Below, piece after piece: positions 1,925 through 36,719 of a stretch of DNA of 64,000 nt. Below the pieces are notes generated by a model that worked only from the letters and a program-made list of their open reading frames with translations, did not search any database and was not told where the DNA came from. The stretch lies in assembly GCF_056712565.1 (NCBI RefSeq), contig NZ_CM160072.1. One strand, 5' to 3'. The position numbers and the translations under genes were made by a program. Positions within the stretch are counted from its first letter, which is position 1, and each line of letters opens with the position of its first letter.

Positions 1925-2234
1925 TTATATTCTCCTTTCTTATAATTAAGGGCAATGTTAATTTGATAAGAAATAATAGGGTAAAAAAATTTTAAAAAAG
2001 AAATGCACTTCACATTTTTTATTACATTCTGAAGATAACTTGGTTAATGATTGGTCTTGCTCATCGCTAATAACATAATGATGAATTTACCAAAAATGAA
2101 ATTTATTAAAGCAAATGAAAATATACAACGACGTCTGGAAATTCTGCCTTTCCTTATGTGAGTCTCCTGTCAGCATGGCAATATGCCCACTCTCATGCAA
2201 GAGTCGGCATATTTTTTCAGAATATATTTATTTT

Positions 2235-3125
2235 TTATTTGGACGTTCTACGCTGCGTATAAATCGCATCCATCACAAAAATTGCCAGCGCCACCCAAAT
2301 AAAGGTGAAAGTTACCATCTTATCGGCACCCGGTTTTTCACCATAAAACGTCACAGCCAGCAGGAACATCAGCGTCGGACCAATGTACTGGAAAAAGCCT
2401 AACGTTGAGAGACGCAGGCGTGTCGCCGCTGCAGTAAAACACAACAGTGGCACGGTGGTGACAATACCGGCGGCGATCAGCAGTAAATTCAGCGACATCG
2501 GGTTTTGCCCCATATGACTGGTTGAGCTGTCGGCAATAGCAAACAGGTAAATCGCCGCCACGGGCAGCAACCACATAGTTTCGATTAACATGCCGGTTTG
2601 CGCTTCAACAGCAATCTTCTTGCGCACCAGGCCGTAGAAAGCAAAACTAAACGCCAGCCCCAGCGCGATGATCGGCAGTGAACCAAAAGTCCACAACTGA
2701 ACCAGCACTCCACATATCGCCAGAATCACCGCCAGCCATTGCATCCGGCGGAATCGCTCGCCGAGGAAAATCATCCCCAGCACAATGTTCACCAGCGGGT
2801 TAATAAAGTAACCAAGGCTCGCTTCCAGCATATGGTGATTGTTCACCGCCCAGATAAACAGTAGCCAGTTGCCGCCAATCAGCACGGCAGAGACTGCCAG
2901 CATAAAAATTTTCTGTGGCGTCTGAATCAGCGTTTTTAAATAGGACCACTGGCGGCAAATGCTCATCAGCACCACCATAAAGAAAAACGACCAGATCACG
3001 CGATGCGTCAGGATCTCATCGGCGGGCACGTAGTAAATCAGTTTGAAGTACGCTGGCGCAATACCCCAAATAAAATAAGCGGCAAGAGCGAGTAATACGC
3101 CCTGCCGCGTTTGTTTTGCATCCAT
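2235..3125 (-). CDS. rarD: RarD, EamA/DMT-family transporter
   Basis: 296-aa polytopic membrane protein; sequence and position (between corA and yigI) match K-12 RarD. Confidence 0.93.
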   Translation of the reverse strand: MDAKQTRQGVLLALAAYFIWGIAPAYFKLIYYVPADEILTHRVIWSFFFMVVLMSICRQWSYLKTLIQTPQKIFMLAVSAVLIGGNWLLFIWAVNNHHMLEASLGYFINPLVNIVLGMIFLGERFRRMQWLAVILAICGVLVQLWTFGSLPIIALGLAFSFAFYGLVRKKIAVEAQTGMLIETMWLLPVAAIYLFAIADSSTSHMGQNPMSLNLLLIAAGIVTTVPLLCFTAAATRLRLSTLGFFQYIGPTLMFLLAVTFYGEKPGADKMVTFTFIWVALAIFVMDAIYTQRRTSK

Positions 3126-3176
3126 CGGGAATACTCATTTTTAATTGGTAACAGCAGTTTACCTGCTTTTATGTCT

Positions 3177-3644
3177 TCAACCTACCATATAGGTGGCGGT
3201 GGCACTGGCAATATAAAGCTGTTCTTCATTGTGTAATTCAACGCGGGCGACGGCGACTTTATTGCCTGCACGTAACAGGCTACTGGTAGCAGTAAAACGC
3301 TCGCCTCTGCCTGGGCGCAGATAATCGACGCGAAGATCAATGGTCCCCATCCGCGATAGCCGCTGGCGTAGTTCATCTTCACTGATGGTTTCGTGGCGGG
3401 TTAAGGTACTTCCCACGCACACCAGACCTGCGGCGACATCCAGCGCCGACGCAATGACCCCGCCGTGTAAAATGCTTTGCGCCCAGTTGCCCACCATCAT
3501 CGGCTGATTTTTAAAGGCCAGCTGTGCGAACTCTTTTTCGTAACGCTCCAGTTCCATCCCCAATGCGCGGTTAAATGGTATGTGATAAACAAACATCTCA
3601 CCCACTAATTTGAGGGCTTGTTCAGCGGTCAGTACGGCAGACAT
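3177..3644 (-). CDS. yigI: Hotdog-fold acyl-CoA thioesterase YigI
   Basis: ORF translation from internal Met [18 protein letters not shown]... (155 aa) matches recalled K-12 YigI; ORF-track start is 6 codons upstream. Confidence 0.88.
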
Positions 3645-3808
3645 AACATCCTTACACTTCATTGGTTAATGAAATGTTGATTTTATGCTTCTTTGTTGTT
3701 GGTTTCTACTTTAGGAAGGGATAACTAACGGCTATGGAGTTAAGTATGTAAAATAGCCCGCAGAAAAATATTCACCTTATCAATAATTCGTTACGGAGAA
3801 CACGAGCG

Positions 3809-4678
3809 ATGCGGACTCTGCAGGGCTGGTTGTTGCCGGTGTTTATGTTGCCTATGGCAGTATATGCACAAGAGGCAACGGTGAAAGAGGTGCATGACGC
3901 GCCAGCGGTGCGTGGCAGTATTATCGCCAATATGCTGCAGGAGCATGACAATCCGTTCACCCTTTATCCTTATGACACCAACTACATCATCTACACCCAA
4001 ACCAGCGATCTGAATAAAGAAGCGATTGCCAGTTACGACTGGGCGGAAAACGCGCGTAAGGATGAAGTAAAGTTCCAGTTGAGCCTGGCGTTTCCGCTGT
4101 GGCGTGGGATTTTGGGGCCAAACTCTGTACTGGGCGCCTCCTACACACAGAAATCCTGGTGGCAGCTTTCTAATAGCGATGAGTCATCACCGTTTCGTGA
4201 AACTAACTACGAACCGCAATTGTTCCTCGGTTTTGCCACGGATTACAACTTTGCTGGCTGGACGCTGCGCGATGTGGAAATGGGCTACAACCACGACTCA
4301 AACGGGCGTTCAGACCCGACTTCCCGCAGCTGGAACCGCCTTTATACCCGCCTGATGGCAGAAAACGGTAACTGGCTGGTAGAGGTGAAGCCGTGGTATG
4401 TGGTGGGGAATACGGACGATAACCCGGACATCACCAAATATATGGGTTACTACCAGCTTAAAATCGGCTATCACCTCGGTGATGCGGTACTGAGCGCGAA
4501 AGGGCAGTACAACTGGAACACCGGTTACGGCGGCGCGGAGTTAGGCTTAAGCTACCCGATCACCAAACATGTGCGCCTTTATACTCAGGTTTACAGCGGT
4601 TACGGCGAATCGCTCATCGACTATAACTTCAACCAGACCCGCGTTGGTGTGGGAGTTATGCTAAACGACCTGTTTTGA
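3809..4678 (+). CDS. pldA: Outer-membrane phospholipase A
   Basis: 289 aa with signal peptide MRTLQGWLLPVFMLPMAVYAQEA and a C-terminal beta-barrel ending ...VGVGVMLNDLF; matches recalled PldA. Confidence 0.95.
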   Translation: MRTLQGWLLPVFMLPMAVYAQEATVKEVHDAPAVRGSIIANMLQEHDNPFTLYPYDTNYIIYTQTSDLNKEAIASYDWAENARKDEVKFQLSLAFPLWRGILGPNSVLGASYTQKSWWQLSNSDESSPFRETNYEPQLFLGFATDYNFAGWTLRDVEMGYNHDSNGRSDPTSRSWNRLYTRLMAENGNWLVEVKPWYVVGNTDDNPDITKYMGYYQLKIGYHLGDAVLSAKGQYNWNTGYGGAELGLSYPITKHVRLYTQVYSGYGESLIDYNFNQTRVGVGVMLNDLF

Positions 4679-14197: not shown

Positions 14198-14301
14198 GCA
14201 TGAGTGCCAGATTGAAGCAGATCTTCAGGAGTAGAAATAACCGAATCGTTTTTTTCGCAAAACACAGTTTTGAGTGATTCCGTTCAGTAATCAACGCTAC
14301 G

Positions 14302-14562
14302 TTATTTATTCTCACGTTGCACGAGATTGTATCCCTTTTCACTAACGTGGTAGTGAGGCATAGACTTATGCCCGCTATCCTCAATAATAACCAAACCTTC
14401 GTTAGCTAATTTGTTAACAATATTAACAACATTACCGAATCCTGGTATTTGCCTTATGGATAGTGTGCGATCGAGATTCATCCAGTTCCAGTTTATATCT
14501 TTCTCAGTCATAACGTTCAGCACGTTAAGTTCATTTTTAGTGATCACGATATTCTGTACCAA
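14302..14562 (-). CDS. Putative immunity protein, copy 2 (86 aa)
   Basis: Paralogue of the adjacent 85-aa ORF (shared blocks NVL.VM.EKDI.W.WM.LDRTL.IR.IP.FGNV.NIV.KL...GLV); sits downstream of the toxin domain in AT-rich DNA. Confidence 0.6.
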   Translation of the reverse strand: MVQNIVITKNELNVLNVMTEKDINWNWMNLDRTLSIRQIPGFGNVVNIVNKLANEGLVIIEDSGHKSMPHYHVSEKGYNLVQRENK

Positions 14563-14621
14563 AATTGATGAGTATCTTATTGAAAGATCACAATGTAAAT
14601 CATGCTCCTGTAATGGCTGGA

Positions 14622-14879
14622 TCAGAAGAGGTTGTCTTGTTGTTCTTTGATAAGATTCAATCCATATTGAGAAACTCTGTAGCGTGGTTTAGAGTTGCCC
14701 TCACCATTTACGATATCAACCAACCCATGATTAACCAGCTTTGTTACGATATTCGCTACGTTGCCAAATTCTGGAATATTTCGTATAGCTAAAGTACGAT
14801 CCAGCACCATCCAGCTCCAGTCAATATCTTTCTCAGCCATAACTTTCAGCACGTTAAATTCAACTATCGTAATCGTCAT
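14622..14879 (-). CDS. Putative cognate immunity protein, copy 1 (85 aa)
   Basis: Start overlaps the stop of the upstream toxin-domain ORF by 4 bp (ATGA), the classic toxin-immunity arrangement. Confidence 0.65.
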   Translation of the reverse strand: MTITIVEFNVLKVMAEKDIDWSWMVLDRTLAIRNIPEFGNVANIVTKLVNHGLVDIVNGEGNSKPRYRVSQYGLNLIKEQQDNLF

Positions 14880-16009
14880 TTTTTTGCATCCGGATGAAAT
14901 AAGTCAGTATCTTTAATTTTAAAGTCTTCTAGAGTTGCAGTATGTGCATTATTCCATAATTCATATCCATCTAAACCATTCGGTTCACCTGTTTCCCATC
15001 CTAAATTACAATAACGCTGATACTCGCGGCATTCATGAGTATAGTAGTTCAGATCGTATTTTTCAGGAAGCAATTCTTTATTTGCTATTTTTTTTAGCCT
15101 TGAAATCATTACATCATTAGCTGGATCATGATCAAATCTGGAGATATGCTTTTCAACAATAGCGATACCTTCCCTATTGATTGTTACGCCATCTATCGTC
15201 AGGTTTTCTATTGGACCACCGGCAAGGTCGGGATTAAATGGTCTTCCTGATACTGCTCCTCTGGCTCCGAAATGCTCAAATGATTCCAAATCAGGGAATC
15301 TCATTCTTCCCAGAACAACTCCAGCAACTATTGAAGCACCAGCGATGAGTAACCCTTTGTTATCCATAACTTGATCGTAACCAGCAGGTGCATCTCCTCC
15401 CAACTTGTTTGCTGTTTCCCTGAATCCTTCGATATTCCCATTGTATATGCCGCCAGCAGCAAGCAGTCTGCCAACCGCTTTACTATTGAGTGTTTTGAGG
15501 CCATTATTATCTTTAGTTTTTTGCCGTGGTATAAACAGACGGTTGTAGTTATCGGGAAATGCCAAATGACTAAATTCAGTATTAGCAATCAGATGCCTGG
15601 AGAGTATATATTCATAACTGACAGTGATGGTTTCTGTATCCAGATTGTTCTCAGTAAACAGGTGATTGATTGCTGATAAGAGCGCGCCGCGGAGTTGAAT
15701 GTTGTAATATTTCTCCTATCGACCAAATCTATTGATCCGATAGAAGTCAAACTCCATGAACAACTGCTCGTTATTGTTAATAGCGTTAATAAGTAACGGG
15801 GAGCTTTTGTCAATCAACTTACAGAAACTAAGGCCATGTAATTGTGACCCTTTGCCTGTATTCGTAATACTATTAGATAGCGAGAACGCGAAGATTTCAT
15901 CTTCATGGCCAATCTGCCAGCGATTACCTATTGATGCGCTCGTTCCGCAACGAGAGGAAATACATCCTTGTTGTTCTCCGGTTATGGTCAGGTAAATTTC
16001 ATCACTCAT
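14876..16009 (-). pseudogene. Hcp-toxin fusion (Hcp-ET-like T6SS tube protein with C-terminal extension) interrupted by an in-frame TAG
   Basis: N-terminal 97 aa (MSDEIYLTITGEQQG...GHEDEIF...KLIDKSSPLL...FYRIN) are Hcp-like; an in-frame TAG at 15716-15718 is followed without further stops by an approx. 280-aa extension (frame checked codon by codon). The 229-aa C-terminal ORF 14876-15565 is the toxin-domain portion. Confidence 0.7.
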
Positions 16010-16493
16010 CTTTGATGAACTCTCTTTATTGCTTGATGTTTTAAAAATAAACAATATTGCTATTTGTTTATAATTATTTACTCCTCAAGTTAATGGATTT
16101 AAATATGGGAAATAAAATGTTTCACTTTAGACCAGTTTTCATGAGGAAAATCTGTAATCATTAATAATAAACATGAATATTTTGCAGTGATTAATATTTG
16201 TTATGAATATAATCTATAACAATGAAGAGTTATCAGTTGTTCGGTGTATAGCCAGAGACGAGTTCAGTTTGTGATTTTTACAGGGCAGTTACAGCCGCAA
16301 AATTTTATGGCTGATTTCACCTTCCCCTCAAGCTTATCTTTCTTAAAAAGAGAAATAATTCTTAAATTCAAATAGTTATATACAATCTACTCTCTTTCTT
16401 GTGACTAGCTTCACATTTCATACTGATGCATTGGAATGAAATAAAATTTCATGAGATTTTGTGTTTGAGAAAAATTATTTCATTAGGTGTGAA

Positions 16494-17051
16494 ATGGACG
16501 CAAAGCTGTACATCACTGAGATCATCAATGAATTAACCTTCGTTAAGGACTCTATCCGTGAGGATGACTGCACCAAATTGATCGACGCTATTCAGCAAAG
16601 CCAGCGCGTTTTCTGCTATGGCCTGGGGCGTGCCGGCTTTTCCATGAAAGCCTTCACCATGCGCCTGATGCATATGGGCAAAGAGGTTTACTTCCTGACG
16701 GAAACCATTACGCCGAACTTTGGGCCTGGCGATCTGTTTATCGTTTCTTCCGCTTCCGGTGAGACAGCACAACTGGTGGCACTGGCGAAAAAAGCACGTC
16801 AGTTTGGCGGCGCTGTGGCGGTGTTAACCACGAATCGACACGCCACTATCACCGAGTTTGTCGACGTCATCGTGCAAATCAATGCCCCTTCCAAAAATCA
16901 AAAAGATTCTGTTTTCCGCTCGGCACAGCCGATGGCGTCGTTGTATGAGCAAGCTTTGCTGGTGATTGCCGATGCATTAGTGATGAAGATGGCTGCTGAA
17001 AGCGGTGCGCCGGAAAGTGAACTGTTTAAGCGCCACGCCAATCTGGAATAG
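16494..17051 (+). CDS. SIS-domain sugar-phosphate isomerase (6-phospho-3-hexuloisomerase-like)
   Basis: About 185 aa from MDAKLYITEI; SIS signatures GLGRAG and SSASGET; first gene of the PTS operon. ORF track starts 11 codons upstream. Confidence 0.7.
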   Translation: MDAKLYITEIINELTFVKDSIREDDCTKLIDAIQQSQRVFCYGLGRAGFSMKAFTMRLMHMGKEVYFLTETITPNFGPGDLFIVSSASGETAQLVALAKKARQFGGAVAVLTTNRHATITEFVDVIVQINAPSKNQKDSVFRSAQPMASLYEQALLVIADALVMKMAAESGAPESELFKRHANLE

Positions 17052-17092
17052 TCGTCGCCGTTATTTGCTCGATACCCTACAGGAGAATAAAA

Positions 17093-18601
17093 ATGAGCAA
17101 AAAAATAACATCCTTGTTTAACTTCAAGAAGTTGCAGAAATTTTCTTCTGCTCTGATGTTACCAATCGCCATTCTTCCGGCGGCGGGTTTGATTTTAGCC
17201 ATCGGGATTTCATTTAACATTGAGCTGCTGGCGAATTGCGGCGGCCTGATTTTCGCCAACCTTCCTTTGCTGTTTTGTGTCGGTATTGTGATTGGCCTGA
17301 CAGGTGATGGTTCTTCATCACTTTCAGCGATTATCAGCTACATGATCATGAATGCCACGATGGGAACGCAACTTGGCATTACCGCGGAGTCCGTTGCAGC
17401 CAGTAACGGTGACTATGCGATGATCCTCGGGGTACCGACGTTACAAACGGGAGTGTTTGGCGGTTTGATTGTCGCCATCTTTGTTTATCTGCTCTATACC
17501 CGCTTCCACAATATTGAATTGCCTCAGTTTCTTGGTTTCTTCGGTGGAAAACGCTTTGTACCGATTATTACGGCGGTGGCGGCAATTATTGTCGGCTATT
17601 TATTGCCGTGGCTGTGGATACCGGTACAAAAAGGTCTGGCGTCGCTTTCAACGCTGGTGACCAGTGGGCATAACGCGAACTTCGCGGCCTTTATTTACGC
17701 CGTTGGCGAACGTTCGCTGATTCCTTTTGGCCTGCATCATATCTGGAACGTGCCGTTTTATTACAACTTTGGCGACTACATGACCAAATCCGGGCAACTG
17801 GTGACGGGCGATATTCCGGTGTTCTTTGCCCAATTGCGCGACGGTGTTCCGTTGACGGCGGGGTTGTTTATGACAGGTCGTTTCCCAATCATGATGTTTG
17901 CGTTACCTGCCGCCGCGTTGGCGATGTATCAGGAAGCAAAACCGGAACGTAAGGCGCTGATTAAAGGCCTTTTACTCTCCGGTGCGCTGACCACATTTGT
18001 TACCGGGATTACGGAGCCGCTGGAATATGCATTTTTGTTTGCAGCTCCGGTTCTCTACATCATTCACATCTTCTTATATGCCACTTCATTTGTGCTGATG
18101 AACATCCTGAATGTGCACATTGGTCATCCTTTTGCTGGCGGTCTTATTGATTTCGTACTGAATGGCGTTATGCCAAACCGCACGCCGTGGTATCTGGTGT
18201 TCCTGGCAGGCGCGGGCTATGCAGCGATTTACTACACCGTATTTCGGGTACTGATCCGCAAGTTGAATCTGAAAACACCGGGACGTGAGGATGAAGAGAT
18301 TGCCGTTGCAACCACATTAACGCGCGAAGAACGTCCATACCAAATCATCGAGGCAGTAGGTGGTTTCGACAATATCGAAGATGTGGATGCCTGCGCAACA
18401 CGCCTGAGGCTGGCGCTGGTAGACGATAAGAAAGTGAATGAAAAACGGCTGAAGGAGTTGGGGGCTGCGGGTTTAGTGAAACTGGGTGATGGCGGTGTAC
18501 AGGTGATATTTGGCGGCAAATCGCAAATCCTGCGCGACGAAATCAAAACCGTAATGAGCAGACCGCGCCCGACAGAAATGACAGTGGCCTGTGCTAACTA
18601 A
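17093..18601 (+). CDS. PTS glucose-family EIICB component
   Basis: 502 aa; EIIC motif GITEPLEYAFLF and C-terminal EIIB domain with phosphorylatable Cys in ACATRLRL. Confidence 0.8.
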   Translation: MSKKITSLFNFKKLQKFSSALMLPIAILPAAGLILAIGISFNIELLANCGGLIFANLPLLFCVGIVIGLTGDGSSSLSAIISYMIMNATMGTQLGITAESVAASNGDYAMILGVPTLQTGVFGGLIVAIFVYLLYTRFHNIELPQFLGFFGGKRFVPIITAVAAIIVGYLLPWLWIPVQKGLASLSTLVTSGHNANFAAFIYAVGERSLIPFGLHHIWNVPFYYNFGDYMTKSGQLVTGDIPVFFAQLRDGVPLTAGLFMTGRFPIMMFALPAAALAMYQEAKPERKALIKGLLLSGALTTFVTGITEPLEYAFLFAAPVLYIIHIFLYATSFVLMNILNVHIGHPFAGGLIDFVLNGVMPNRTPWYLVFLAGAGYAAIYYTVFRVLIRKLNLKTPGREDEEIAVATTLTREERPYQIIEAVGGFDNIEDVDACATRLRLALVDDKKVNEKRLKELGAAGLVKLGDGGVQVIFGGKSQILRDEIKTVMSRPRPTEMTVACAN

Positions 18602-18651
18602 TTCGAGATTAGCGGGCTGGTTTCAGCCCGCCAGACAGAGAGAGCTGAAGT

Positions 18652-20649
18652 ATGAATTCACAATTACTGGCTAACGCCATCCGAATGTTAAGTGTTGATG
18701 CGATCCAGAAAGCGAACTCCGGTCATCCGGGCGCGCCGATGGGGATGGCGGATATTGCCGAAGTGGTCTGGCGTCGTCACCTGCGTCATAACCCAAAAAA
18801 TCCGCAGTGGTTTAACCGCGACCGCTATATTCAGTCGAACGGGCACGGTTCCATGTTGATTTACGCTTTGCTGCATCTTACAGGCTACGACCTGTCGATG
18901 GATGATATTCGCGACTTTCGTCAGCTCCACTCCCGCACGCCAGGTCATCCAGAATATGGTTATACGCCGGGTGTTGAAACCACCACCGGCCCGTTGGGGC
19001 AGGGCGTAGCTAATGCGGTGGGGATGGCGATTGCGGAGAAGGCGCTGGCGGCAGAATTTAACAAACCGGGCTTTAATATTGTTGATCATCACACATGGCT
19101 ATTTTTGGGTGATGGCTGCCTGATGGAAGGGATCTCCCACGAGGCCTGTGGTCTTGCAGGAACGCTGAAGCTCGGCAATCTGATTGCTATCTGGGACGAT
19201 AACGGTATTTCGATCGATGGTCACGTAGAAGGCTGGTTTGCTGAAGATACGGCTGCCCGTTTTCGTGCCTACGGCTGGCATGTCATTGAAGGCGTTGATG
19301 GTCACGATCCAGAAGAGGTAGATGCTGCGGTGCGTGAAGCGAAAAGCGTCACGGATAAGCCCAGTCTGCTGTGCTGCAAAACGATTATCGGTTTTGGTTC
19401 GCCAAATAAAGCCAACAGCCACGATTGCCACGGCTCGGCGCTGGGTGCAGATGAAGTGGCGCTGGTGCGTGAACGTCTGCAATGGCCGTATGCCCCTTTC
19501 GAAATTCCTGGTGAAATTTATGCCGCATGGGATGCGACCGAGAAAGGCGCGCAGGTTCAACAGGAATGGGATGCACTGTTTGCTGACTACGCGAAGCAGT
19601 GGCCGGAACTGGCGGCGGAGTTTACTCGTCGCATGAAGGGTGATTTGCCTGCTGGCTGGGCCGAGAATATGCAGAAATATGTGCACGATCTGCAATCCCA
19701 TCCGGCGGCGCTGGCAACCCGTCAGGTCAGCCAGAAATGCCTCAATCACTTCGCGGATATGCTGCCGGAACTGATGGGCGGCTCGGCGGACTTGTCGCCC
19801 TCTAACCTGACTCGCCATCAGAAATCGGTTGATTTCACCGGGGAAAATCCGGCGGGGAATTACATCTCCTATGGCGTGCGTGAATTTGGTATGTCGGCCA
19901 TCATGAACGGTCTTGCGCTGCATGGTGGGTTTATCCCTTACGGCGGTACTTTCCTGATGTTTATGGAATATGCGCGTAATGCACTGCGCATGGCGGCGCT
20001 GATGAAGATCCGCTCGGTGTTTGTTTATACCCACGATACCATCGGCCTGGGCGAAGACGGCCCGACACATCAGCCCGTTGAGCAACTGGCGTCGCTGCGT
20101 CTGACGCCGAATATGGAAACCTGGCGCGGTTGCGATCAGGTGGAAGTGGCGGTAGCCTGGCAACAGGCGATTGAGCGCAAAGATGGCCCAACGTCGTTGG
20201 TATTAACGCGCCAACCTCTGGCGCAACAGCCGCGCACCGCTGCACAGTTGGCAGAGATTGCGCGTGGTGGTTATGTACTGAGTGATTGTGACGGTCAGCC
20301 TGAGATGATCCTCATTTCTGCGGGTTCAGAGATTGAGTTAGTGGTCAGCGCCGCAAAAGCGTTAACGGAAGAAGGGCGTAAAGTTCGCGTGGTTTCCATG
20401 CCGTGTACCGAGCGTTTCGATAATCAGGATGCGGCGTACAAAGAGTCGGTATTGCCAAAAGCTGTACGCAAACGTCTGGCGGTAGAAGCCAGCATCGCCG
20501 GATTCTGGGAACGCTACGTCGGCCTGGACGGTAAAGTGATCGGCATGACGAGCTTTGGTGAGTCTGCTCCGGCGAATGTGTTGTTCAAACACTTTGGTTT
20601 TACGCCGGAAAATGTCCTGGCGCAGGCGCGTGAGCTACTGAACAGCTAA
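18652..20649 (+). CDS. Transketolase (additional paralogue, TktA/TktB-like)
   Basis: 665 aa; N-terminus ...[18 protein letters not shown] and ThDP-binding GDGCLMEG motif; clearly homologous to TktA but in an accessory context. Confidence 0.85.
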
Positions 20650-20678
20650 ACCTGCACAAGGGGTGAAAGGATGACCTT

Positions 20679-21524
20679 TTACCCCTTGAAACGGGAGCCA
20701 AGAAACTCTTCACGGGTGCGGTATTTCTCGTAATGCGCCTTGTTTTTATACATAAACAACAGCACCAGCATATCAATAACGCCCATTGCCGGAACGCGAG
20801 TGGAGTCGAAGGCTTCAAAGAAGATTTTATCGCTGACCGCGGTATTGAGTTGATGGGTGGAGAGTTTTGATAACGGAGATTTAATATAGTTAGTGATACA
20901 AACGGATTTGGCACCGCGCTCTTTCACCACTTTAAAGATATCGACCATTAAGTTGGTGCTGCCAGAGTTAGAAATACCAATCGCCAGGTCACGTTTCCCC
21001 ATAGAATATGCCGCATTAATTTGCATTTCCGGGCTGACGTGAACAACGGTTTTTAATCCGAGTTGGCTGAATTTATAAGCACCATAAACGGCCAGAGGGT
21101 TTGAATTTCCGGCAGCAAAAAAGAAAATAGTGTCGCAATTAGCAAGTAGTTTGAGAATGGACTCAAGCACTTCGGCATTAAAAAATTGCGTTGATTGTAT
21201 TAAATCTTCGGCCTGTTTTTTTAATAAAAATGTGGCCAGCGACGTTATATCGGTAAAATCGGTATTATCAGGATAGCTATTGTCAGGATTAATGACTTCT
21301 TTTGCTAATGCAATTTTTAAATGGTAATAACCCTGATAACCTAATTTCTTACAGGTGCGTACGATAGTCGCTTCACTGGCATGGCTTTTTTCTGATAGTT
21401 CAGTGACACTATAGTTCACGACTTCATGTGCGTGGCTAAGAATATAGTCAGCGACCTTTTTTTCCGCCTGATGCAGTGTAGGGTAATTGCTTTGAATCAG
21501 ACTTTTTACGGTTATGTTATTCAT
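20679..21524 (-). CDS. RpiR/MurR-family regulator (HTH + SIS)
   Basis: 281 aa; N-terminal HTH (LSEKSHASEATIVRTCKKLGYQGY) and C-terminal SIS domain; convergent with the PTS-transketolase operon. Confidence 0.8.
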   Translation of the reverse strand: MNNITVKSLIQSNYPTLHQAEKKVADYILSHAHEVVNYSVTELSEKSHASEATIVRTCKKLGYQGYYHLKIALAKEVINPDNSYPDNTDFTDITSLATFLLKKQAEDLIQSTQFFNAEVLESILKLLANCDTIFFFAAGNSNPLAVYGAYKFSQLGLKTVVHVSPEMQINAAYSMGKRDLAIGISNSGSTNLMVDIFKVVKERGAKSVCITNYIKSPLSKLSTHQLNTAVSDKIFFEAFDSTRVPAMGVIDMLVLLFMYKNKAHYEKYRTREEFLGSRFKG

Positions 21525-21724
21525 AATTAGTAAATTTCATTCTGACAGAAAGTGCTGATTATAACATAGTTTTCAGGCGTGGATAGGTGTGAAAAAAATG
21601 AAGGTGTGCAGTGAACGTAATGATTAACAGACCGGTTAATTTTCATGAATTACGTCAACTGCACAAAAATAATTTAAACGGGTGCTCTAATTAAAGCAAA
21701 ACTTATATTTTTATCATTGTATTG

Positions 21725-22630
21725 TCAATTAAATACAAATTGTGTCATTAATTGTGGGTTTCTTAAATATTCTATGCACCACTGACAGGCTTTGCCCATA
21801 CCATCGGAACGAGCGGCAAGAAATAACTTGGTGGCGTGTTTATGTTCGCGCATTGGCTTTTTAAGCAATTTACCGCTGTTCAATAACGGCAATGCCAGAT
21901 GATGTGGAATATAACCAATACCGACGTTTTGTTCTATTAAGGCGATTGCCGTAGCGAAGTCAGGAACAAAAATGGGTTTTTGTCCTTCCAACAACCAGGC
22001 TTGCATCGGGGGGAAGTTAACGGAGGTATCGCGGATACAAATCGCTGGATAGTGACGCAATTCACTGTTTTCTAATGGATGCCGCTTCGCTGCCAGTGGG
22101 TGGAGTGGGCTGACGACAAAATCCCATTCCATTTGTCCGACCGGTTCGCTAATGATGCCTTCACTGCTTGGTACTGCATGAGGAGCACCGTAGACCAGAT
22201 CAGCACGCTTACTGTACAGCGCATCCCAGCAGCCGTTGTATACCTCAAGATCTACCGTCAGTGTTGTTGATGTGAATTGCCGTTCAAAATCTCGAATAAA
22301 TGCCACCAGCAAATCACCAGGAATAATATTGTTCACCGCAATTGTCAGTTCACGCTCAATACCATCGTGAATCAGCACTGTGTTGCGCTTTAATGCTTCC
22401 AGGTCGCCAAGAATAGTTTTGCTATGTTCGATGAAGTAACTTCCCGCTGGCGATAATTCAATATAGCGTCCCTTACGAATGAACAGTTCAACGCCCAGGC
22501 TCTCTTCCGCTTTCTTGATGGTGTAACTGATGGCGGAAGGGACTTTATTTAACTGCTCGGCTGCGGTGGTAATGCTCTGGTGTCTGGCGACCAGATGAAT
22601 AACACGAAGCGTTTCGTCTGAGATGAACAT
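21725..22630 (-). CDS. LysR-family transcriptional regulator
   Basis: 301 aa; N-terminal HTH (ITTAAEQLNKVPSAISYTIKKAEESLGVELF); immediately downstream of the catabolic operon. Confidence 0.8.
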   Translation of the reverse strand: MFISDETLRVIHLVARHQSITTAAEQLNKVPSAISYTIKKAEESLGVELFIRKGRYIELSPAGSYFIEHSKTILGDLEALKRNTVLIHDGIERELTIAVNNIIPGDLLVAFIRDFERQFTSTTLTVDLEVYNGCWDALYSKRADLVYGAPHAVPSSEGIISEPVGQMEWDFVVSPLHPLAAKRHPLENSELRHYPAICIRDTSVNFPPMQAWLLEGQKPIFVPDFATAIALIEQNVGIGYIPHHLALPLLNSGKLLKKPMREHKHATKLFLAARSDGMGKACQWCIEYLRNPQLMTQFVFN

Positions 22631-22707
22631 AAGGCTCCCTGGTCAGTGGTAAAGTGGCTGAATCTCTCCAGATTCAGCCGTAATCATTGCCTGAGTATAC
22701 CCAGGAA

Positions 22708-23931
22708 TTAGCGGTGTTGACTTGCCCGACTGAGAATCGCATACGCGATACATGCCACCAGAATCGAGTCTACCGAAGGGATCGTCGTCAGGGTGAATAA
22801 GCCTTTTACGGTCATAAAGCCAACCGCTGCGCCTATGATCCATGCTGCGAATGTCAGCACTTTAATCTGTGACTCCTGGGCTAACACTGACTCTTGATAG
22901 CCATTACGGCGATAAAGGAAAAAGTCAGCGATATAAATTCCGGCAACGGGTGGCGTGGCGATACCCAGGAACAGCAGAAACGGAATAAACCACGCCATAA
23001 TATCCATACTGCCTACGATGGCGGAAAGGATACCCAGCGCCACGGTAATCTGCCATTTGGGAAAGCGGGTAAGCAGTGTGGAAACCACCAGCGTGCCCTG
23101 GAACATATTGCCCGCGTTACCGGTGACGCAGGCGAAAATCAACAACAGCGCCGCAGGCAGAACCGCACCGAATACCGCCATCGCACCCAGTAAAGATCCC
23201 TGACCACTAATGGCGCTCGGCGTTGCACCCGCCCAGTAGAGCAGAGGGTAGGCAACCAGAAACGTCACGCCTGCGGCAATCAGCGCATGTTTGCGGTTAT
23301 GCACAAAACTACCGAAATCAGGCAGTGTGGCAACCAGCACAATAATGGTGCCAACAACGGTGGAAACGGCGACACCTGTATTCATCTCCACAATCGCCGC
23401 TGGTACTGCCACTTCGGTATGGGTTGCCACATAGAGGATGTAACACAGCACCAGCGCGATAACCGGCACGGCAACCTGGGCAATTTTTCCCAGAACGGCA
23501 AAGCCAAATGCCGTAGAGGCGACAAAAATGACACAGCCAGCCGCCACTAACAGTGCCAGTGGAACTTCCAGTCCATGTTGAGCCAGTAAGTCATGTACCG
23601 AATGACCAAACATATTGGCGGTAACGGCAATCCAGCCGAACAGACTTATCGCCATCAAAATGTTAATGGCGATGGCCCCTTTTTCGCCAAACGAATATTT
23701 CACAATGCCATACGTTGGCAGGCGGGCTTTTTCTCCCACGCTAATGGTGATGGCTGAAAGTAAGGTCAGAATGACGCCGCCTAACAATACGACGCTAATT
23801 AAACTGCCGCTGGAAAGTTGATTGCCGAGGCTTGAGGATGACAACAGCACAGGTGTGACGGCAATACCCAGCAAAATCATGGCAATACGCAATCCTGATG
23901 CCGTATTCAGATTCTCTTCTTTTTTACGCAT
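22708..23931 (-). CDS. NCS1-family (CodB-like) permease
   Basis: 407-aa polytopic membrane protein with CodB-like architecture; assignment by pattern only. Confidence 0.6.
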   Translation of the reverse strand: MRKKEENLNTASGLRIAMILLGIAVTPVLLSSSSLGNQLSSGSLISVVLLGGVILTLLSAITISVGEKARLPTYGIVKYSFGEKGAIAINILMAISLFGWIAVTANMFGHSVHDLLAQHGLEVPLALLVAAGCVIFVASTAFGFAVLGKIAQVAVPVIALVLCYILYVATHTEVAVPAAIVEMNTGVAVSTVVGTIIVLVATLPDFGSFVHNRKHALIAAGVTFLVAYPLLYWAGATPSAISGQGSLLGAMAVFGAVLPAALLLIFACVTGNAGNMFQGTLVVSTLLTRFPKWQITVALGILSAIVGSMDIMAWFIPFLLFLGIATPPVAGIYIADFFLYRRNGYQESVLAQESQIKVLTFAAWIIGAAVGFMTVKGLFTLTTIPSVDSILVACIAYAILSRASQHR

Positions 23932-23956
23932 AGTATGTTCCCTTTATAAATGCGCG

Positions 23957-24346
23957 TTACACAGTATGAAAATGCCCGGTGTATTTGCGCCAGCTACCCA
24001 GTTCTGTAATTTCCCGTTGGCCTTCGGTCAGCCAGTTTTCTGCCAGTACGCCCAGCACTTCGCTACCATCGGCAAGTTTGATTTTGCCAATTGCCAGCCC
24101 AGCGGGTTCGCTCATTAACAGAGCGGCAAAACTGGCCAGCGGTAATTGCCAAATTTCTACGTCGACGTGTGTTCCTCCTTCATTCACGCGAATCATTCCC
24201 GGATGGCGATCATTAATACTCCACAACCGGTAATGGGCGTCAGTTCGGTCTTCACGGACAAAAATACCGCCCGCTTTTTGCATATTTGGGTTGAGTTCCA
24301 GGCCGCGCATCAGCGTTCCGTTAACGGCTAAAAGCGTTGTAGTCAT
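23957..24346 (-). CDS. AIG2/gamma-glutamyl-cyclotransferase-like protein
   Basis: 129 aa; N-terminus LLAVNGTLMRG resembles the GGCT/AIG2 fold start; assignment tentative. Confidence 0.5.
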   Translation of the reverse strand: MTTTLLAVNGTLMRGLELNPNMQKAGGIFVREDRTDAHYRLWSINDRHPGMIRVNEGGTHVDVEIWQLPLASFAALLMSEPAGLAIGKIKLADGSEVLGVLAENWLTEGQREITELGSWRKYTGHFHTV

Positions 24347-24362
24347 TGTGTTCTCCAGAGAA

Positions 24363-25319
24363 TTAAAGGGTTATCCATGTACCGCTCTGATGCGCCAGGG
24401 CTGCTTTTATGGTTTGCGGTGAAGTAATCAGGCCGCTGGCCTGTTTGCCTTGTTGCTGGCTGGCATTGATGAAATCAACAATGGCTTCCACTTTGGGTTG
24501 CATACTGCCGACACCAAACTGACCTTCCCGCAACAGCGTTTGCGCTTCGGCAACGCTGATAGCGTCGAGCCACTGTTGTTGTGGTGTACCAAAGTTAATC
24601 GCTACTTTTTCTACACCGGTGGGGATCACCAGCAGATCTGCGCCTAACTGACTGGCGAGCAGCGCGGAGGCCAGATCTTTATCGATCACGGCTTCTACAC
24701 CTTTCAGTTGTTGCCCGTCTCGCACCACCGGAATACCGCCGCCGCCGCAGGCAATAACCAGATATCCCTGGCGCACCAGGTGAGCGATGGTGTCGTGCTC
24801 AATAATTTCCAGTGGTGCAGGAGAGGGAACTGTACGCCGCCAACCACGCCCGGCGTCCTCCATCAGCGTCCAGCCGAGTTGTTGTTGGCGTTGTTGGGCC
24901 GTTGCTTCATCGAGAAACGCGCCAATTGGTTTACTGGGGCTGGCGAAAGCATCGTCATGTGGGCTGACTCGCGTTTGTGTCACCAGGGCAATTACCGGTT
25001 TGTTTATGCCACGGCGAGCCAATTCGTTATGCAGCGCTTTCTGGAACATGTAGCCAATTGCACCTTGTGTATCACCCACGGCGTAATCAAGTGGAACCGG
25101 AGAAACTTCGTTACTGGCGAGTTCAGAGCGGCGCAGAATAAAGCCCACCTGCGGGCCATTACCGTGGGTTAGTACCAGGTCCCATCCGGCTTCAACCATA
25201 TCAACGATATGTTGCACGCTTTCCATCACTGCAACATATTGATCGGGAATACTATTGCGTTGCTCGTCCTGAATGAGCGCATTGCCGCCAACCGCGACGA
25301 CAGCCAGTGGCTTAACCAT
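24363..25319 (-). CDS. Carbamate kinase-like protein
   Basis: From MVKPLAVVAVGGNAL...; amino-acid kinase fold with ACGGGGIPVV motif; ORF-track start is a spurious upstream extension. Confidence 0.8.
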   Translation of the reverse strand: MVKPLAVVAVGGNALIQDEQRNSIPDQYVAVMESVQHIVDMVEAGWDLVLTHGNGPQVGFILRRSELASNEVSPVPLDYAVGDTQGAIGYMFQKALHNELARRGINKPVIALVTQTRVSPHDDAFASPSKPIGAFLDEATAQQRQQQLGWTLMEDAGRGWRRTVPSPAPLEIIEHDTIAHLVRQGYLVIACGGGGIPVVRDGQQLKGVEAVIDKDLASALLASQLGADLLVIPTGVEKVAINFGTPQQQWLDAISVAEAQTLLREGQFGVGSMQPKVEAIVDFINASQQQGKQASGLITSPQTIKAALAHQSGTWITL

Positions 25320-26736
25320 GATGGTTCTCCTTTGCGACGATCTCCGCCAGTGCACGTACAGCGGCGACAAAACAGGCCATCGGCGCAGTGGTGATCCCGG
25401 CACCAATTTGCCCGACCCCCGCTTGTTTGTGGGCGATACCCGTATTGATGACCGGTAAAATGCCGCGATCGGTCACTTTACGCGCATCAATTCCTGCTGC
25501 GGTGGGGGCAAAATTGAGGGCTGGAAGTGTAAATGCGGGGTTACCGCCGAGGGTGATGGCTTGCATCCGACGGCTGTTATTGGTGGCATCGGCAGGGGTG
25601 CCTCCCACAAATTTGACGATCGCCGGAGACGACGCCATCGCGAAGCCACCCATACCTGCGGTTTCAGTAATTGCGCTATCACCCAGGTCAGCAGCAGCGT
25701 CGTCAACGCCAAATCCGGGGAAGAACAGACCTTCAACGGCATTGGCAGGAGCCTGGAACCAGCGATCGCTAGTACCGGAAAGCCGAATACCAAAACTCAC
25801 CCCGTTACGCGCCATCACCGTAACCATTGAACTGAACGGTACATTGGCGGCGGCATCCATCATTGCTTTACAGGCGGCCATCGACAGATTGAGGAAGAAG
25901 TGATCGTTACCGGTGATAAATGCCACGACGCGCTGGATATGTTCCTGTGGAAGAGAGCAGGCCAGCAATGCCGGGAGCAGGCGCTTAATCAGCAAACCGG
26001 TAGCGGCAGCATTGCGGTTATGAACTTCATCCCCCATATGCAGCGCCTGCGCCATTAATGGCTTGAGTTCCAGCTCGCCGTGTTGTGCGATTGCTGCTTT
26101 CATTGCCGGCGCCAGTTCATCGCGCATCCAGGCCAGACGATTGAGAACTTCATCGTTATTGGCGCCAAAACGGAGAACCTTACCCAGACCTTCATTGAAA
26201 TTGCTAAAAGTACGATGGCCGTTGGTTTTGTTTTCTACCACCCATAACGGCATCGACGGGCTGATGATGCCTGCCATTGGGCCAACCGCGTGATAATGAT
26301 GACAAGGGGCAAGGTCGATTTCGCCTGCGTTTATTTGGTTTTCAGCGTCTTGCTGGCTGGTGGCCCAACCTTCGTACAGCATGGCACCAATAATCGCCCC
26401 TTTTACCGGACCACACATCTCTTCCCAGGCAATCGGCGGGCCAGAGTGCAAAATACGTTTTTGTTCAGCCATTGCTGGAATGGCCTCTTTAGCGAGCATG
26501 ACATCCACCAGCATGGGCTGTGCTTCGAGATAACGTGTCATGGCGATTTGGTTGGCATTTTCTACCAGGGGATGACGTAGCAACGATGCCAGATCCAATC
26601 CAGCGTCAATATCGCCTTGTGCTGGTGGCTGCCAGTTGAGTGCAATTGCGCTTCCCCCGGCATGTTGAATATTGTCAGCAAAACTGTGTAGTCCCGCGTT
26701 CACAACCTTCAAAGGCTGATTAAATAAGGTATTCAT
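25312..26736 (-). CDS. YlbE-like (DUF1116) protein
   Basis: About 474 aa from MNTLFNQPL; start overlaps the fdrA-like stop by 4 bp; paralogous to the K-12 allantoin-region ylbE. Confidence 0.7.
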   Translation of the reverse strand: MNTLFNQPLKVVNAGLHSFADNIQHAGGSAIALNWQPPAQGDIDAGLDLASLLRHPLVENANQIAMTRYLEAQPMLVDVMLAKEAIPAMAEQKRILHSGPPIAWEEMCGPVKGAIIGAMLYEGWATSQQDAENQINAGEIDLAPCHHYHAVGPMAGIISPSMPLWVVENKTNGHRTFSNFNEGLGKVLRFGANNDEVLNRLAWMRDELAPAMKAAIAQHGELELKPLMAQALHMGDEVHNRNAAATGLLIKRLLPALLACSLPQEHIQRVVAFITGNDHFFLNLSMAACKAMMDAAANVPFSSMVTVMARNGVSFGIRLSGTSDRWFQAPANAVEGLFFPGFGVDDAAADLGDSAITETAGMGGFAMASSPAIVKFVGGTPADATNNSRRMQAITLGGNPAFTLPALNFAPTAAGIDARKVTDRGILPVINTGIAHKQAGVGQIGAGITTAPMACFVAAVRALAEIVAKENHHG

Positions 26737-28292
26737 GCGTTTAGCCCCTTTTTCTGCAACTGAGTCTGTGCAACGGTGCTGGCCCATAGCGCCGCCTGTG
26801 CATTGCTGCTGGCGATGATGACCCCTGCATTTTGTAGTGCTCTTATCTGCTGACTGCGTATTTGCGGATCAGCTTCCGTTCCGCAAACGTGCGCAATCAG
26901 CAACGGTGCGTTATTCATGTCGATGTGTGAAAGTTGGTCCAGTAATTCGCTGGCAGGCGCCGTGGAAGCGCCATAACCAAGTACCAGGTCGAATAACACG
27001 ACGGCAGTGTGTGAGTCGTTGAGTTCGTTGAGCAGACGTTGATTGCGCAGAGTCGGGTCGATCATTGGATGCGGTTTGCCACGGGTGAAATCATCGTCGC
27101 CCATATCGATCAACGTGTGATCTTCGCTTTGCCAGATATTTGCCAGAGCACGATTACCCGCAACTGGCGTATTGGAAGCTGCGCTGAATCCCTTTTGTTG
27201 GCAGATAAGTTGCGCTTCGTAGCAGAAGGTTCCTCCGGCGAAAACACCGCGTATCGCCTGGCGATGGGCTGGCAGGCGCTGACAGGCGTTTTGTAACATT
27301 GTGAGATCGGCGCAGGAAATCTCGGTCTCGACAGCCGGAAGTGGCTGAGCATTCAGTAACGCTACGGCGATATTTGCGGCGCTGGCAAGTGTGGTGGCCG
27401 CGGTGATATTGGGACGTGCCAGATCATGCGGATTCGCACCGAGGAAATTCACCACCACGGGTTTTCCACAAGCCTCGGCGCGCTCCAGAATAGTCTGGGC
27501 AACGATCGGTGAAGGCGGTTTTGAAATCAGCACAATCACGCGAGTTTCATCGTCTTGCGCCAGCGCATCTAAAGCGAAGAGCATCGATATTCCACCAATC
27601 TCTTCACTGAGATCATGCCCACCGGTTCCCAACGCCTGAGAAATACCCGCTCCGAGCTGGTCGATTCGGCAAGTCACTTCCTGTAGCCCGGTGCCTGACG
27701 CGCCAATAACACCAATTGCTCCGCGTTTCACCACATTAGCGAAGCCTAACGGAATGCCGTTAACAATGGCGGTTCCACAGTCAGGTCCCATTACGATGCG
27801 CTGACGTTCTCGGGCAAGCGTTTTGATAGATTTTTCCTGCCCGATACTGACGTTATCGCTGAACATCATCACGTTCATTCCGAGGTTTAACGCTTTAATT
27901 GCTTCGGCGGCGGCGTAGTCTCCCGGTACAGAAATGAGTGCCAGGTTGGCTTCGGGTTCGGCTTCCAGTGCCATTTCCAGGCTGACCTTTTCCGGTGTTT
28001 TAATGCCACTATCCGTTTCATCATCGGGTTTGCTGGTCAGACGTTGCTGGGCCAGTACCAGTGCTTCATTGCAAATATCTTCTTCACCCATGACTGCAAT
28101 CACTAAATCATTGGGACTGGCGTTGATTTCGTTACCCAGACCCGCATCGCGCAATTGTTCGAGATTATTGGGCGTTCCCATGACGACCGAGGCCTGTTGA
28201 ATACCGGGCAACTTGCTGATTTGCGCGGAAATCTGCATCAGAGAAACTGAGTCCTGATAAAGATTACTGAAAACTTTATATTTAACTTTCAT
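26733..28292 (-). CDS. FdrA-like protein (CoA-binding, succinyl-CoA-synthetase-alpha-like)
   Basis: 519 aa; resembles FdrA of the K-12 allantoin region. Confidence 0.75.
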   Translation of the reverse strand: MKVKYKVFSNLYQDSVSLMQISAQISKLPGIQQASVVMGTPNNLEQLRDAGLGNEINASPNDLVIAVMGEEDICNEALVLAQQRLTSKPDDETDSGIKTPEKVSLEMALEAEPEANLALISVPGDYAAAEAIKALNLGMNVMMFSDNVSIGQEKSIKTLARERQRIVMGPDCGTAIVNGIPLGFANVVKRGAIGVIGASGTGLQEVTCRIDQLGAGISQALGTGGHDLSEEIGGISMLFALDALAQDDETRVIVLISKPPSPIVAQTILERAEACGKPVVVNFLGANPHDLARPNITAATTLASAANIAVALLNAQPLPAVETEISCADLTMLQNACQRLPAHRQAIRGVFAGGTFCYEAQLICQQKGFSAASNTPVAGNRALANIWQSEDHTLIDMGDDDFTRGKPHPMIDPTLRNQRLLNELNDSHTAVVLFDLVLGYGASTAPASELLDQLSHIDMNNAPLLIAHVCGTEADPQIRSQQIRALQNAGVIIASSNAQAALWASTVAQTQLQKKGLNA

Positions 28293-28386
28293 GCTGTTAC
28301 GCCTGTTTCATTCCGCCCGATAGCAAAATTCGGGCAAAGCATCCCCGTGTAGCCCCATAAACGGGCTACGGGAGAAAAGGTTGAAA

Positions 28387-29247
28387 TCAATTCATGGTGT
28401 TCAGGGTTCGAAAGCCATGCAGCATTCCTGCAAGGCAATCTACTCCTGACGTTGCGCCAAATTGCATGACCTGTTCTGCACAGGATGCGATTGTCATTGC
28501 CGATGCGCTCCCAACCAGTTGTGCGAGTAACTGGCAAATCGGTTCTGAAAAATGTCCCTGAAGCGCACGCTCCAGATAATGACGACTGATATCCGTGGTG
28601 TTGTGCGCATGTTGATCAATTGCCTGCTGCAACCGGTATTGATGATCGGCAAGTGGTGCAGGGAGTTGCCATAACCAGAGCGCTGCCAGATAGCCCAACA
28701 AATAGTCATCTCCATCGGGCGTTAAGCCTTTACCAAAGCCGATCAGTTGTGGCACCTGGCGTTCCAGCGCATCTGGATGCTCCATAATTGCTAATCCCTG
28801 GTGCGTGAGACTATCCGGCAGGTGCAATGTGCTTTGAACGTTATGTTCCAGACAAAATAAAAGCCGTTGCGATGCCATCGTTGGGTAGTGCTGGAAAACC
28901 AAAGGGAATGCCTCAAGTGTCAGCATTCTCCCCACAAATGGCGACTGCCAGAGCGTTGCGTTTTCGAGCGCCACACAAAATCGAGGTGTCCGCAGTAAGC
29001 CTTGGGTTAACTGAATGGGATCTGAATGGGCAATCTCTCTTCGCCAGTCCCAACATTCAGGTAGCCAGACTCTGGCAGCATCAGGGAGATTCAGATACGT
29101 TTGCGCACACAACAGAGTGATGAATGTTCCCGCGTCTGAATACAGATTTACCGCATGTTTAAAAGCGCTATGTAGACGTAAATCTTGCGTTTCATTCTGC
29201 GGGAAAAGATATCCCAACGACGATGCGCAAAGCGTAACCTGTACCAT
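28387..29247 (-). CDS. YlbF-like (DUF2877) protein
   Basis: 286 aa; position and size consistent with the third member of the FdrA/YlbE/YlbF triad; family call by context. Confidence 0.55.
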   Translation of the reverse strand: MVQVTLCASSLGYLFPQNETQDLRLHSAFKHAVNLYSDAGTFITLLCAQTYLNLPDAARVWLPECWDWRREIAHSDPIQLTQGLLRTPRFCVALENATLWQSPFVGRMLTLEAFPLVFQHYPTMASQRLLFCLEHNVQSTLHLPDSLTHQGLAIMEHPDALERQVPQLIGFGKGLTPDGDDYLLGYLAALWLWQLPAPLADHQYRLQQAIDQHAHNTTDISRHYLERALQGHFSEPICQLLAQLVGSASAMTIASCAEQVMQFGATSGVDCLAGMLHGFRTLNTMN

Positions 29248-29252
29248 CGGCG

Positions 29253-33538: not shown

Positions 33539-33550
33539 TGCTGGCCCCTG

Positions 33551-34060: not shown

Positions 34061-34073
34061 CCGTACCTCAGGT

Positions 34074-35048: not shown

Positions 35049-35072
35049 TGCTTTTATATCCTTATTTATCAG

Positions 35073-36696: not shown

Positions 36697-36719
36697 TAGT
36701 CGTTTCCTTTAATCATGGT

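Follow-up and report, generated by a model that had tools for sequence, protein, structure and literature searches.

An amber-interrupted Hcp-toxin fusion gene and its two putative immunity genes in extraintestinal Escherichia coli

The closest described relatives of the locus reported here are the Hcp-ET effectors of the Enterobacteriaceae (Ma et al. 2017, Virulence 8:1189), in which Hcp, the tube protein of the T6SS (type VI secretion system), is fused to a C-terminal toxin; the passages that PMC6730261 and PMC6099711 devote to this family name five toxin classes, namely HNH deoxyribonuclease (DNase), DUF2235/Tle1, Pyocin_S, colicin DNase as well as papain-like peptidase. Hcp-toxin fusions are, therefore, already a known kind. 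A second group of likely relatives is found among the bacteriocins: one cytotoxic domain is common to pyocins SX2 and G, carocin D and carocin S3, the two carocins having DNase activity in vitro (PMC10422930, PMC7322526), while SX2 has none and lowers in-vitro transcription-translation by 50%; for the SX2/G/carocin D domain, the predicted fold is unlike that of any structurally solved bacteriocin domain (PMC10422930). Here we describe a gene in a 64,000-nucleotide (nt) stretch of contig NZ_CM160072.1 (assembly GCF_056712565.1; hereafter the window) that encodes an Hcp domain followed by a bacteriocin-type toxin domain and is interrupted by a single amber codon. We consider it very likely that this locus records the recent, lineage-specific loss of an effector through a TGG-to-TAG mutation, with both immunity genes retained, in an acquired effector-immunity islet.

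All coordinates are those of the window, and the hcp-ET locus is read on its minus strand (Table 1). One frame runs across 14876-16054 over 393 codons and its translation contains exactly one internal stop. This extent had been given to the gene by an earlier note on the same DNA; it stands as a single-stop open frame, but the start does not, the gene occupying 14876-16009 and beginning at the ATG at 16009 (MSDEIYLTITGEQQG...; MSDEIY...). The TTG at 16054 was dropped as a gene start because RefSeq and every intact homologue begin at this ATG, farther downstream. The translation confirms the position of the in-frame TAG at 15716-15718, and the Pfam profile PF05638 (T6SS_HCP), which matches residues 6-135, places it inside the Hcp domain, as the note had said; behind it 279 codons (the note had put them at about 280) stay open as far as the TGA at 14876-14878, and the three motifs that the note had cited for the Hcp-like part, GHEDEIF, KLIDKSSPLL and FYRIN, are all found. 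An interrupted Hcp-toxin gene is not in itself new, since the public RefSeq/PGAP annotation of APEC O1 and ATCC 11775 already marks it as tssD, a pseudogene with an internal stop.

On sequence grounds, the N-terminal part is a genuine Hcp domain. The PF05638 search, which the earlier note had named beforehand as a possible refutation of its Hcp-like N terminus, gave an E value of 4.4e-15 when the stop was replaced by a residue; TIGR03344 scored 124.9 bits with an intact allele, against a curated cut-off of 58.9, over residues 1-147; and the PDB Hcp chains 6a2v, 3he1 and 5mxn also matched, the best with an E value of 8.5e-15. The broader description of the gene as an Hcp with a C-terminal toxin extension, forming an orphan locus next to metE, is borne out. 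The uninterrupted fold of about 150-160 residues expected of an Hcp protein is broken in the window copy by the amber codon at residue 98, and because this codon falls in the middle of the fold the 97-residue truncated product would, to judge from the size of the domain, be unable to serve as a tube subunit.

The stop is a real and recent nonsense mutation, a G-to-A change that turns TGG into TAG, and it is lineage-wide, being common to a sizeable group of extraintestinal E. coli. Alleles were counted in 5,426 complete E. coli genomes by means of two 43-nt megablast queries centred on codon 98; since no 28-nt seed survives a mismatch at the centre, each query detects its own allele only. The TAG allele is present in 281 of these genomes, Nissle 1917 among them, and 256 of the 281 matches are free of mismatches. 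The TGG allele is present in 562, and the two counts added together come close to the total of 846 genomes with the gene. A 2.4-kb region is 100% identical in ATCC 11775, APEC O1, S88 and dozens of other extraintestinal strains, sequenced by different groups and on different platforms, and the gene alone is 100% identical also in CFT073, NC101 and PMV-1. Intact alleles lie at graded distances from the window's copy: that of strain 746 encodes 377 amino acids (aa) and has 98.2% DNA identity to it, those of 19KM1776 and O145:H28 RM12761 encode 382 aa and have about 92%, and that of DETEC-S792 has 99.6%, with only 4 of 1,134 bases different, the stop being one of the four; in DETEC-S792 the flanking genes are the same and the immunity proteins are identical to those of the window. 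When the DNA of four alleles is aligned, TGG to TAG is the only difference within an 81-nt stretch that is otherwise nearly invariant, and Trp98 is invariant. The 377-aa and 382-aa toxin alleles diverge mainly over their last 90 or so residues.

The earlier note had offered both a strain-specific nonsense mutation and a sequencing error as explanations. The first was right, except that the mutation is shared by a whole lineage. The second, that TAG is a sequencing or assembly error in an intact gene, has on its side the general possibility that attends any single base and nothing more; the TAG-centred sequence comes from 281 independent assemblies and the surrounding region is identical in dozens of strains, and error is therefore excluded for all practical purposes. 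In other genomes the gene is damaged in other ways: in MS 110-3 its length differs by 1 base, in O145 RM9872 and MFDS1022581 it matches in two separate places, and Shigella entries of the AlphaFold database (AFDB) hold fragments, one of them labelled IS1 orfB. This variety suggests repeated independent decay of the Hcp-toxin effector.

Two further explanations accept the stop and hold that the toxin is nevertheless made. According to the first, the toxin part is expressed alone from an internal start, either the TTG at codon 149 (229 aa) or the ATG at codon 236 (142 aa, approximately the toxin core), and serves as a cargo effector loaded into another Hcp or forms a toxin-antitoxin-like addiction pair with the immunity gene. 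The frame is indeed fully open after the TAG, a purine-rich GGGAAGA precedes the ATG, public gene callers list products of 229, 163 and 142 aa (including Q1R4A0 and A0A0H2Z4D2), and the toxin domain does occur as a short stand-alone protein in some genomes. The open frame, however, is explained by the recency of the mutation, the intact allele being only four differences away; the TTG (at 15565) has no Shine-Dalgarno-like sequence upstream, and the purine run abuts the ATG directly, with no spacer; a promoter and terminator scan was uninformative, finding 12 promoter-like sites where 9.3 are expected in shuffled sequence; the gene calls are mechanical and no proof of expression; and no export route is evident for a toxin that lacks Hcp, PAAR or any other delivery domain. 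This idea, which the earlier note had also put forward in the form of the 229-aa product, thus went unsupported, and we hold it to be quite unlikely.

According to the second, ribosomes read through the TAG, helped by a suppressor tRNA or by a leaky context, so that a little full-length Hcp-toxin is made and the stop acts as a throttle and not as a knockout. That there is a single in-frame amber in an otherwise undamaged gene, and that the TAG allele persists in 281 genomes, successful lineages included, speaks for it. Against this, persistence is equally expected of a neutral recent pseudogene; no recoding signal was seen, none having been sought; the base directly after the TAG is G, and a G at position +4 after an amber codon is not known as a leaky context; the invariance of Trp98 means that an inserted Gln or Tyr may not be tolerated; and amber suppressors are not known from natural isolates. 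Read-through as a regulatory device seems to us highly improbable. For the more general claim that the toxin core is still produced in the TAG lineages of extraintestinal pathogenic E. coli (ExPEC; ST95/ST73-type, with CFT073, UTI89 and Nissle 1917), by way of the ATG at codon 236 or of rare read-through, as an addiction module or a cargo effector, the chances are only marginally better; if it were true, one point mutation would have turned a fused effector into a separate one.

Effector loss being the preferred reading, the question becomes what kind of toxin was lost. Some 230 residues follow the Hcp domain, of which the last 130 or so make up the toxin domain. A search of 1.84 billion cluster representatives gave 547 relatives, 401 of them with an E value of at most 1e-10, and most align only to those last residues, from HFGARG to YHPDA. 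The core forms the C terminus of Hcp, PAAR and Rhs/YD-repeat proteins, of proteins of more than 5,000 residues, of pre-toxin-TG proteins and of S-type pyocins (Pyocin_S), and judged by these diverse carriers, which are its signature, the module is a widespread mobile polymorphic-toxin domain. Six columns are invariant across 79 aligned sequences (numbered on the full-length protein, H288, F292, D319, H325, E329 and W352) and five others nearly so (R291, R304, Y323, E326 and H356); the His/Asp/Glu set of H288, D319, H325 and E329 suggests a metal-dependent hydrolase. AlphaFold2 predicts an almost all-helical core (predicted local distance difference test, pLDDT, 88-99). No significant family was found for it in Pfam (even at an E value of 10), NCBIfam or PADLOC scans, Foldseek of the model against the PDB gave nothing better than an E value of 1.9, and a profile search of PDB sequences nothing at an E value of 10, so that its predicted fold is unlike the bacteriocin cytotoxic domains of known structure. 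Some public records call it "HNH endonuclease" or "colicin", names that neither fold nor motif supports. In particular, when the core was examined for a His-Me finger, the beta-beta-alpha-metal fold with an HNH-type motif was not found; carocin D has been classed as a His-Me finger/HNH nuclease (PMC9990079).

Between the Hcp domain and the toxin core lie about 100 residues that are predicted to be helical (AlphaFold2 helices at model residues 29-86, pLDDT 56-90). In Enterobacterales this linker and the core are found together behind three kinds of N-terminal domain: Hcp; PF26362, which is probably DUF8093, an AFDB entry bearing that name; and an unannotated domain of about 140 residues, seen in 348-aa Pantoea and Klebsiella proteins. 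In pyocins, the position held by the helical linker in the Hcp fusion is occupied by the Pyocin_S domain, which is needed for the inner-membrane translocation of pyocin G (PMC9040868). By analogy, our guess is that the linker may have a role akin to this translocation.

The pyocin and colicin relatives indicate where the domain belongs. In a Foldseek search of AFDB50 it closes many proteins that bear the names S-type pyocin, pyosin/cloacin translocation domain protein, colicin D or klebicin D. In a tblastn search of plasmids it was found on 5.8-kb Klebsiella bacteriocin plasmids, on the mobilisable 7-kb ColE1-type E. coli plasmid pS19_141-d (NZ_CP075644.1) and on the Pseudomonas aeruginosa replicon NZ_CP131792.1. 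At 1611-4359 the E. coli plasmid has a classical nuclease-colicin operon: a colicin-like bacteriocin of 747 aa, for which "S-type pyocin domain-containing protein" is the only name given and whose toxin domain is 48% identical to the window's, is followed by a 90-aa gene and then a lysis gene. On the P. aeruginosa replicon, a 711-aa S-type pyocin lies beside toxA; its last 125 or so residues are 48% identical to the window's domain (E value 2e-32), and its stop overlaps by 1 nt the start of an 85-aa gene annotated "immunity protein" that ends in ...PKFVTEKKYGIV, the C terminus being EKKYGIV. The reverse complement of the reverse cloning primer for ImSX2, the 87-aa immunity protein of SX2, encodes ...EKKYGIV (PMC10422930). 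On these grounds the toxin domain most probably belongs to the pyocin G/SX2/carocin D cytotoxic class, and the empty PDB searches fit what has been said of the fold of that class (PMC10422930). The "unknown toxin type" of the earlier note is now narrowed to a bacteriocin-type cytotoxic domain, with this class as the likeliest home.

The P. aeruginosa locus (NZ_CP131792.1, 1312-5330) deserves a description of its own. The incomplete gene table of PLSDB lists no gene at the place of the 711-aa pyocin open reading frame (ORF), which is followed by the immunity gene, an orphan colicin-type immunity gene, two pyocin S6-type cytotoxin fragments and a pyocin S6 immunity gene; this toxA-side locus gives the impression of bacteriocin modules, present and past, stacked together.

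Downstream of the hcp-ET gene lie two small genes. The earlier note had spoken of "85-aa ORFs"; both exist and, by position, both are likely immunity genes, but only the first has 85 aa, the second having 81 (86 if it starts at the TTG at 14562). They are 56-58% identical to each other, depending on the start of the second, and the second is 88% identical to the gene directly 3' of the 382-aa toxin allele, to which the first is 59% identical. Each context examined has, behind the toxin, a gene of 79-90 aa, and in most of them start and stop overlap by 4 nt; the contexts are a VgrG-DcrB-PAAR-toxin cluster, the Pantoea 348-aa type, two Pseudomonas pyocins, the P. aeruginosa pyocin described above and an E. 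coli colicin plasmid. The enterobacterial small proteins form a family of their own of 163 clusters, and Pfam, NCBIfam and PADLOC scans assigned neither small ORF to a significant family. We propose that the 85-aa gene is the putative cognate immunity gene and that the second is a putative orphan immunity gene against the other toxin allele.

The small genes might instead be winged-helix transcription regulators of the locus. NCBI gives the name "MarR family transcriptional regulator" to many of the enterobacterial proteins (83-90 aa), AlphaFold2 models the 85-aa protein with a winged-helix-like topology (pLDDT 87, in the order helix-helix-helix-strand-strand-helix), and comparison of 85-aa-type proteins with winged-helix regulators gave weak matches both to structures of MarR, PadR and HxlR proteins and to Pfam families of the winged-helix type. 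All of these profile matches, however, stay below significance (the best PDB E value is 0.1 and the best Pfam value 1.2e-3, never 0.001 or less). Moreover, (i) a gene of the same size overlaps the toxin stop under Hcp, PAAR, pyocin and colicin domains, including in a colicin-immunity-lysis operon; (ii) the pyocin-linked small proteins, which are a separate family with no homology shown, correspond to the proteins co-purified with pyocins G and SX2; and (iii) duplication and allele-matched divergence are typical of immunity genes. We regard the regulator explanation as very unlikely, and the "MarR family" name looks like an over-annotation of a winged-helix-like immunity protein.

The reading that we prefer, effector loss with retained immunity, can be put as follows. 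In its intact form the protein would be an "evolved" Hcp that becomes part of the tube of a T6SS whose genes lie elsewhere in the genome; it would be fired into a neighbour, in whose cytoplasm the toxin of about 130 residues would act, most likely on nucleic acids or translation and by means of the His/Asp/Glu cluster H288, D319, H325 and E329. The 85-aa protein would shield the producer and its kin, and the second gene would guard against the other toxin allele. The change of Trp98 to an amber codon would end translation after a useless 97-residue fragment and uncouple the toxin from its delivery domain, so that the weapon is lost and both immunity genes are kept, still protecting against relatives with intact alleles. 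A disabled effector with intact cognate and non-cognate immunity genes is a general pattern in polymorphic toxin loci.

Several points weigh against this reading. What the sequence comparisons show is the Hcp domain, the nonsense change and how far it has spread, where the toxin family occurs, and its synteny with small genes downstream; toxicity, immunity function, T6SS delivery, the biochemical target and the loss of function are all things that we infer, and low-level UAG read-through, or initiation at the internal ATG of codon 236 behind its GGGAAGA, leaves it some residual doubt of the small size given above. As for the small proteins, the MarR names already mentioned point elsewhere, and hhalign of the enterobacterial 85-aa group against the pyocin-linked immunity proteins gave an E value of 0.16 and a probability of 0.4%; since no homology to the latter is detectable, we infer the immunity role from gene position and allele-matched variation. 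The class assignment runs through one intermediate pyocin and a primer-derived heptapeptide and not through direct alignment with ETV05907.1, EHF11209.1 and ADH95192.1, and no homologue of the toxin domain carried the name pyocin G, SX2 or carocin D. Finally, the activity reported for the class is contradictory: DNase for carocins D and S3, and for SX2 none, its effect being inhibition of transcription-translation (PMC10422930).

The gene and its two small neighbours sit in an AT-rich islet between metE and ysgA that is best read as horizontally acquired, given its low G+C content and the presence of the gene in 846 of 5,426 genomes. No T6SS core genes had been seen in the window by the earlier note, and the annotation of the matching 64 kb of APEC O1 agrees, with none across a segment that is otherwise core genome from corA to dsbA; UTI89, CFT073, APEC O1 and S88 have 15-18 T6SS orthologues (PMC6730261).

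The rest of the window contains other accessory blocks. Between the Hcp-toxin islet and ysgA, window positions 16494-29921 hold a block of about 13.5 kb with, in order, hxlB, a ptsG-like phosphotransferase system (PTS) IIBC gene, tkt, RpiR and LysR regulators, a cytosine permease, a carbamate kinase, DUF1116, fdrA, DUF2877 and a cysteine hydrolase. In strains 746, 19KM1776 and RM12761 ysgA directly adjoins the Hcp gene, and the block is therefore a second accessory island at the same spot. From udp to rmuC, which are adjacent in strain 746 and other compared strains, the window has a 5.5-kb block (32048-37487) with genes for a TctABC-type tricarboxylate transporter, for 2-dehydro-3-deoxygalactonokinase and aldolase, and for an IclR regulator. 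Beside corA, at 582-1924 on the minus strand, the APEC O1 annotation has a YPO3983-family gene together with a DUF943 gene.

Table 1. Features of the amber-interrupted hcp-ET locus, in window coordinates
Feature	Position	Strand	Basis
AT-rich islet: three genes and a 480-nt upstream intergenic region	14200..16490		33-41% G+C; metE and the DNA beyond hxlB have 52-56%
hcp-ET pseudogene, 377 codons: Hcp domain, helical linker and toxin domain, with one amber codon	14876..16009	-	Translation; RefSeq; intact 377-aa alleles
Hcp (TssD) tube-protein domain, residues 1-147	15569..16009	-	PF05638; TIGR03344; PDB Hcp chains
TAG at codon 98; TGG (Trp98) in intact alleles	15716..15718	-	DNA alignment; codon-by-codon comparison; allele counts
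Helical linker, residues about 170-245, with Gly/Ala-rich hydrophobic helix LLIAGASIVAGVVLG	15275..15502	-	Sequences; AlphaFold2 helices
Toxin core domain, residues 246-377 (HFGARG...YHPDA)	14879..15274	-	547 relatives; invariant columns; AlphaFold2; pyocin match
Putative cognate immunity gene, 85 aa	14622..14879	-	ATG overlaps toxin TGA by 4 nt; synteny; AlphaFold2 winged-helix-like model
Putative second, orphan immunity paralogue, 81 aa (86 aa from TTG 14562)	14302..14547	-	Identity to the first gene and to the gene of the alternative allele

As a pseudogene the hcp-ET gene matters little, having already been flagged by RefSeq. What gives it interest is the domain that it carries, which would be a sixth kind of toxin among the Hcp-fused effectors of E. 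coli, common to S-type pyocins and colicin-like plasmids and with no solved structure. The intact E. coli alleles would offer an easy genetic system with which to settle the activity of the pyocin G/SX2/carocin D domain. The TAG allele, for its part, would be a natural example of a weapon lost and a shield kept in CFT073, UTI89, APEC O1, S88 and Nissle 1917, with the prediction that these strains resist, yet cannot mount, the Hcp-toxin attack, and the immunity proteins would be ones that are widely mislabelled as MarR-family regulators. Both the occurrence of a bacteriocin-type domain on Hcp outside the five Hcp-ET classes and that of a disabled copy with two immunity genes in prominent ExPEC and probiotic strains appear to be undescribed in the literature consulted, to which the original of Ma et al. 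2017 did not belong.

How, then, does this locus stand beside the systems already described? With the Hcp-ET effectors it shares an N-terminal Hcp tube domain and a C-terminal toxin, an extension after Hcp well above the 60 residues expected of the family, an orphan chromosomal location away from the T6SS cluster, and, directly downstream, one or more genes for immunity, putative in the window, duplicated ones having been described, in the published passages on the family, for Hcp-ET3-4; it differs from them in that its toxin lies outside the five published classes, the Pfam scan finding the Hcp domain only, and in that a stop codon disables the window copy. Another short polymorphic toxin associated with T6SS is the PT1 DNase of Nachmias et al.; its fold is novel, its histidines are catalytic, a small immunity protein neutralises it, and it occurs in Cronobacter and further Proteobacteria (bioRxiv 10.1101/2021.10.19.465003). 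It was rejected as the family of the toxin core, since a crystal structure of PT1 has been reported, yet no relative came up in the PDB searches. Pyocin G, SX2, carocin D and carocin S3 resemble the locus in that a C-terminal domain of about 130-155 residues, unlike any bacteriocin domain whose structure is known, precedes a gene of about 85-87 aa for immunity, putative in the window. They differ in that their domain sits after receptor-binding and Pyocin_S translocation domains, while that of the window sits after Hcp and another, helical linker (in Pfam scans PF06958, Pyocin_S, is absent from the Hcp fusion and present in the pyocin and colicin relatives), and in that no homology can be detected between the immunity proteins of the one group and the putative ones of the other. 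The locus also shares its pattern with T6SS effectors inactivated by nonsense mutations or insertion sequences whose immunity genes have been retained; it is in no way distinctive among these, its inactivation being due to a single, very recent point mutation common to many strains.

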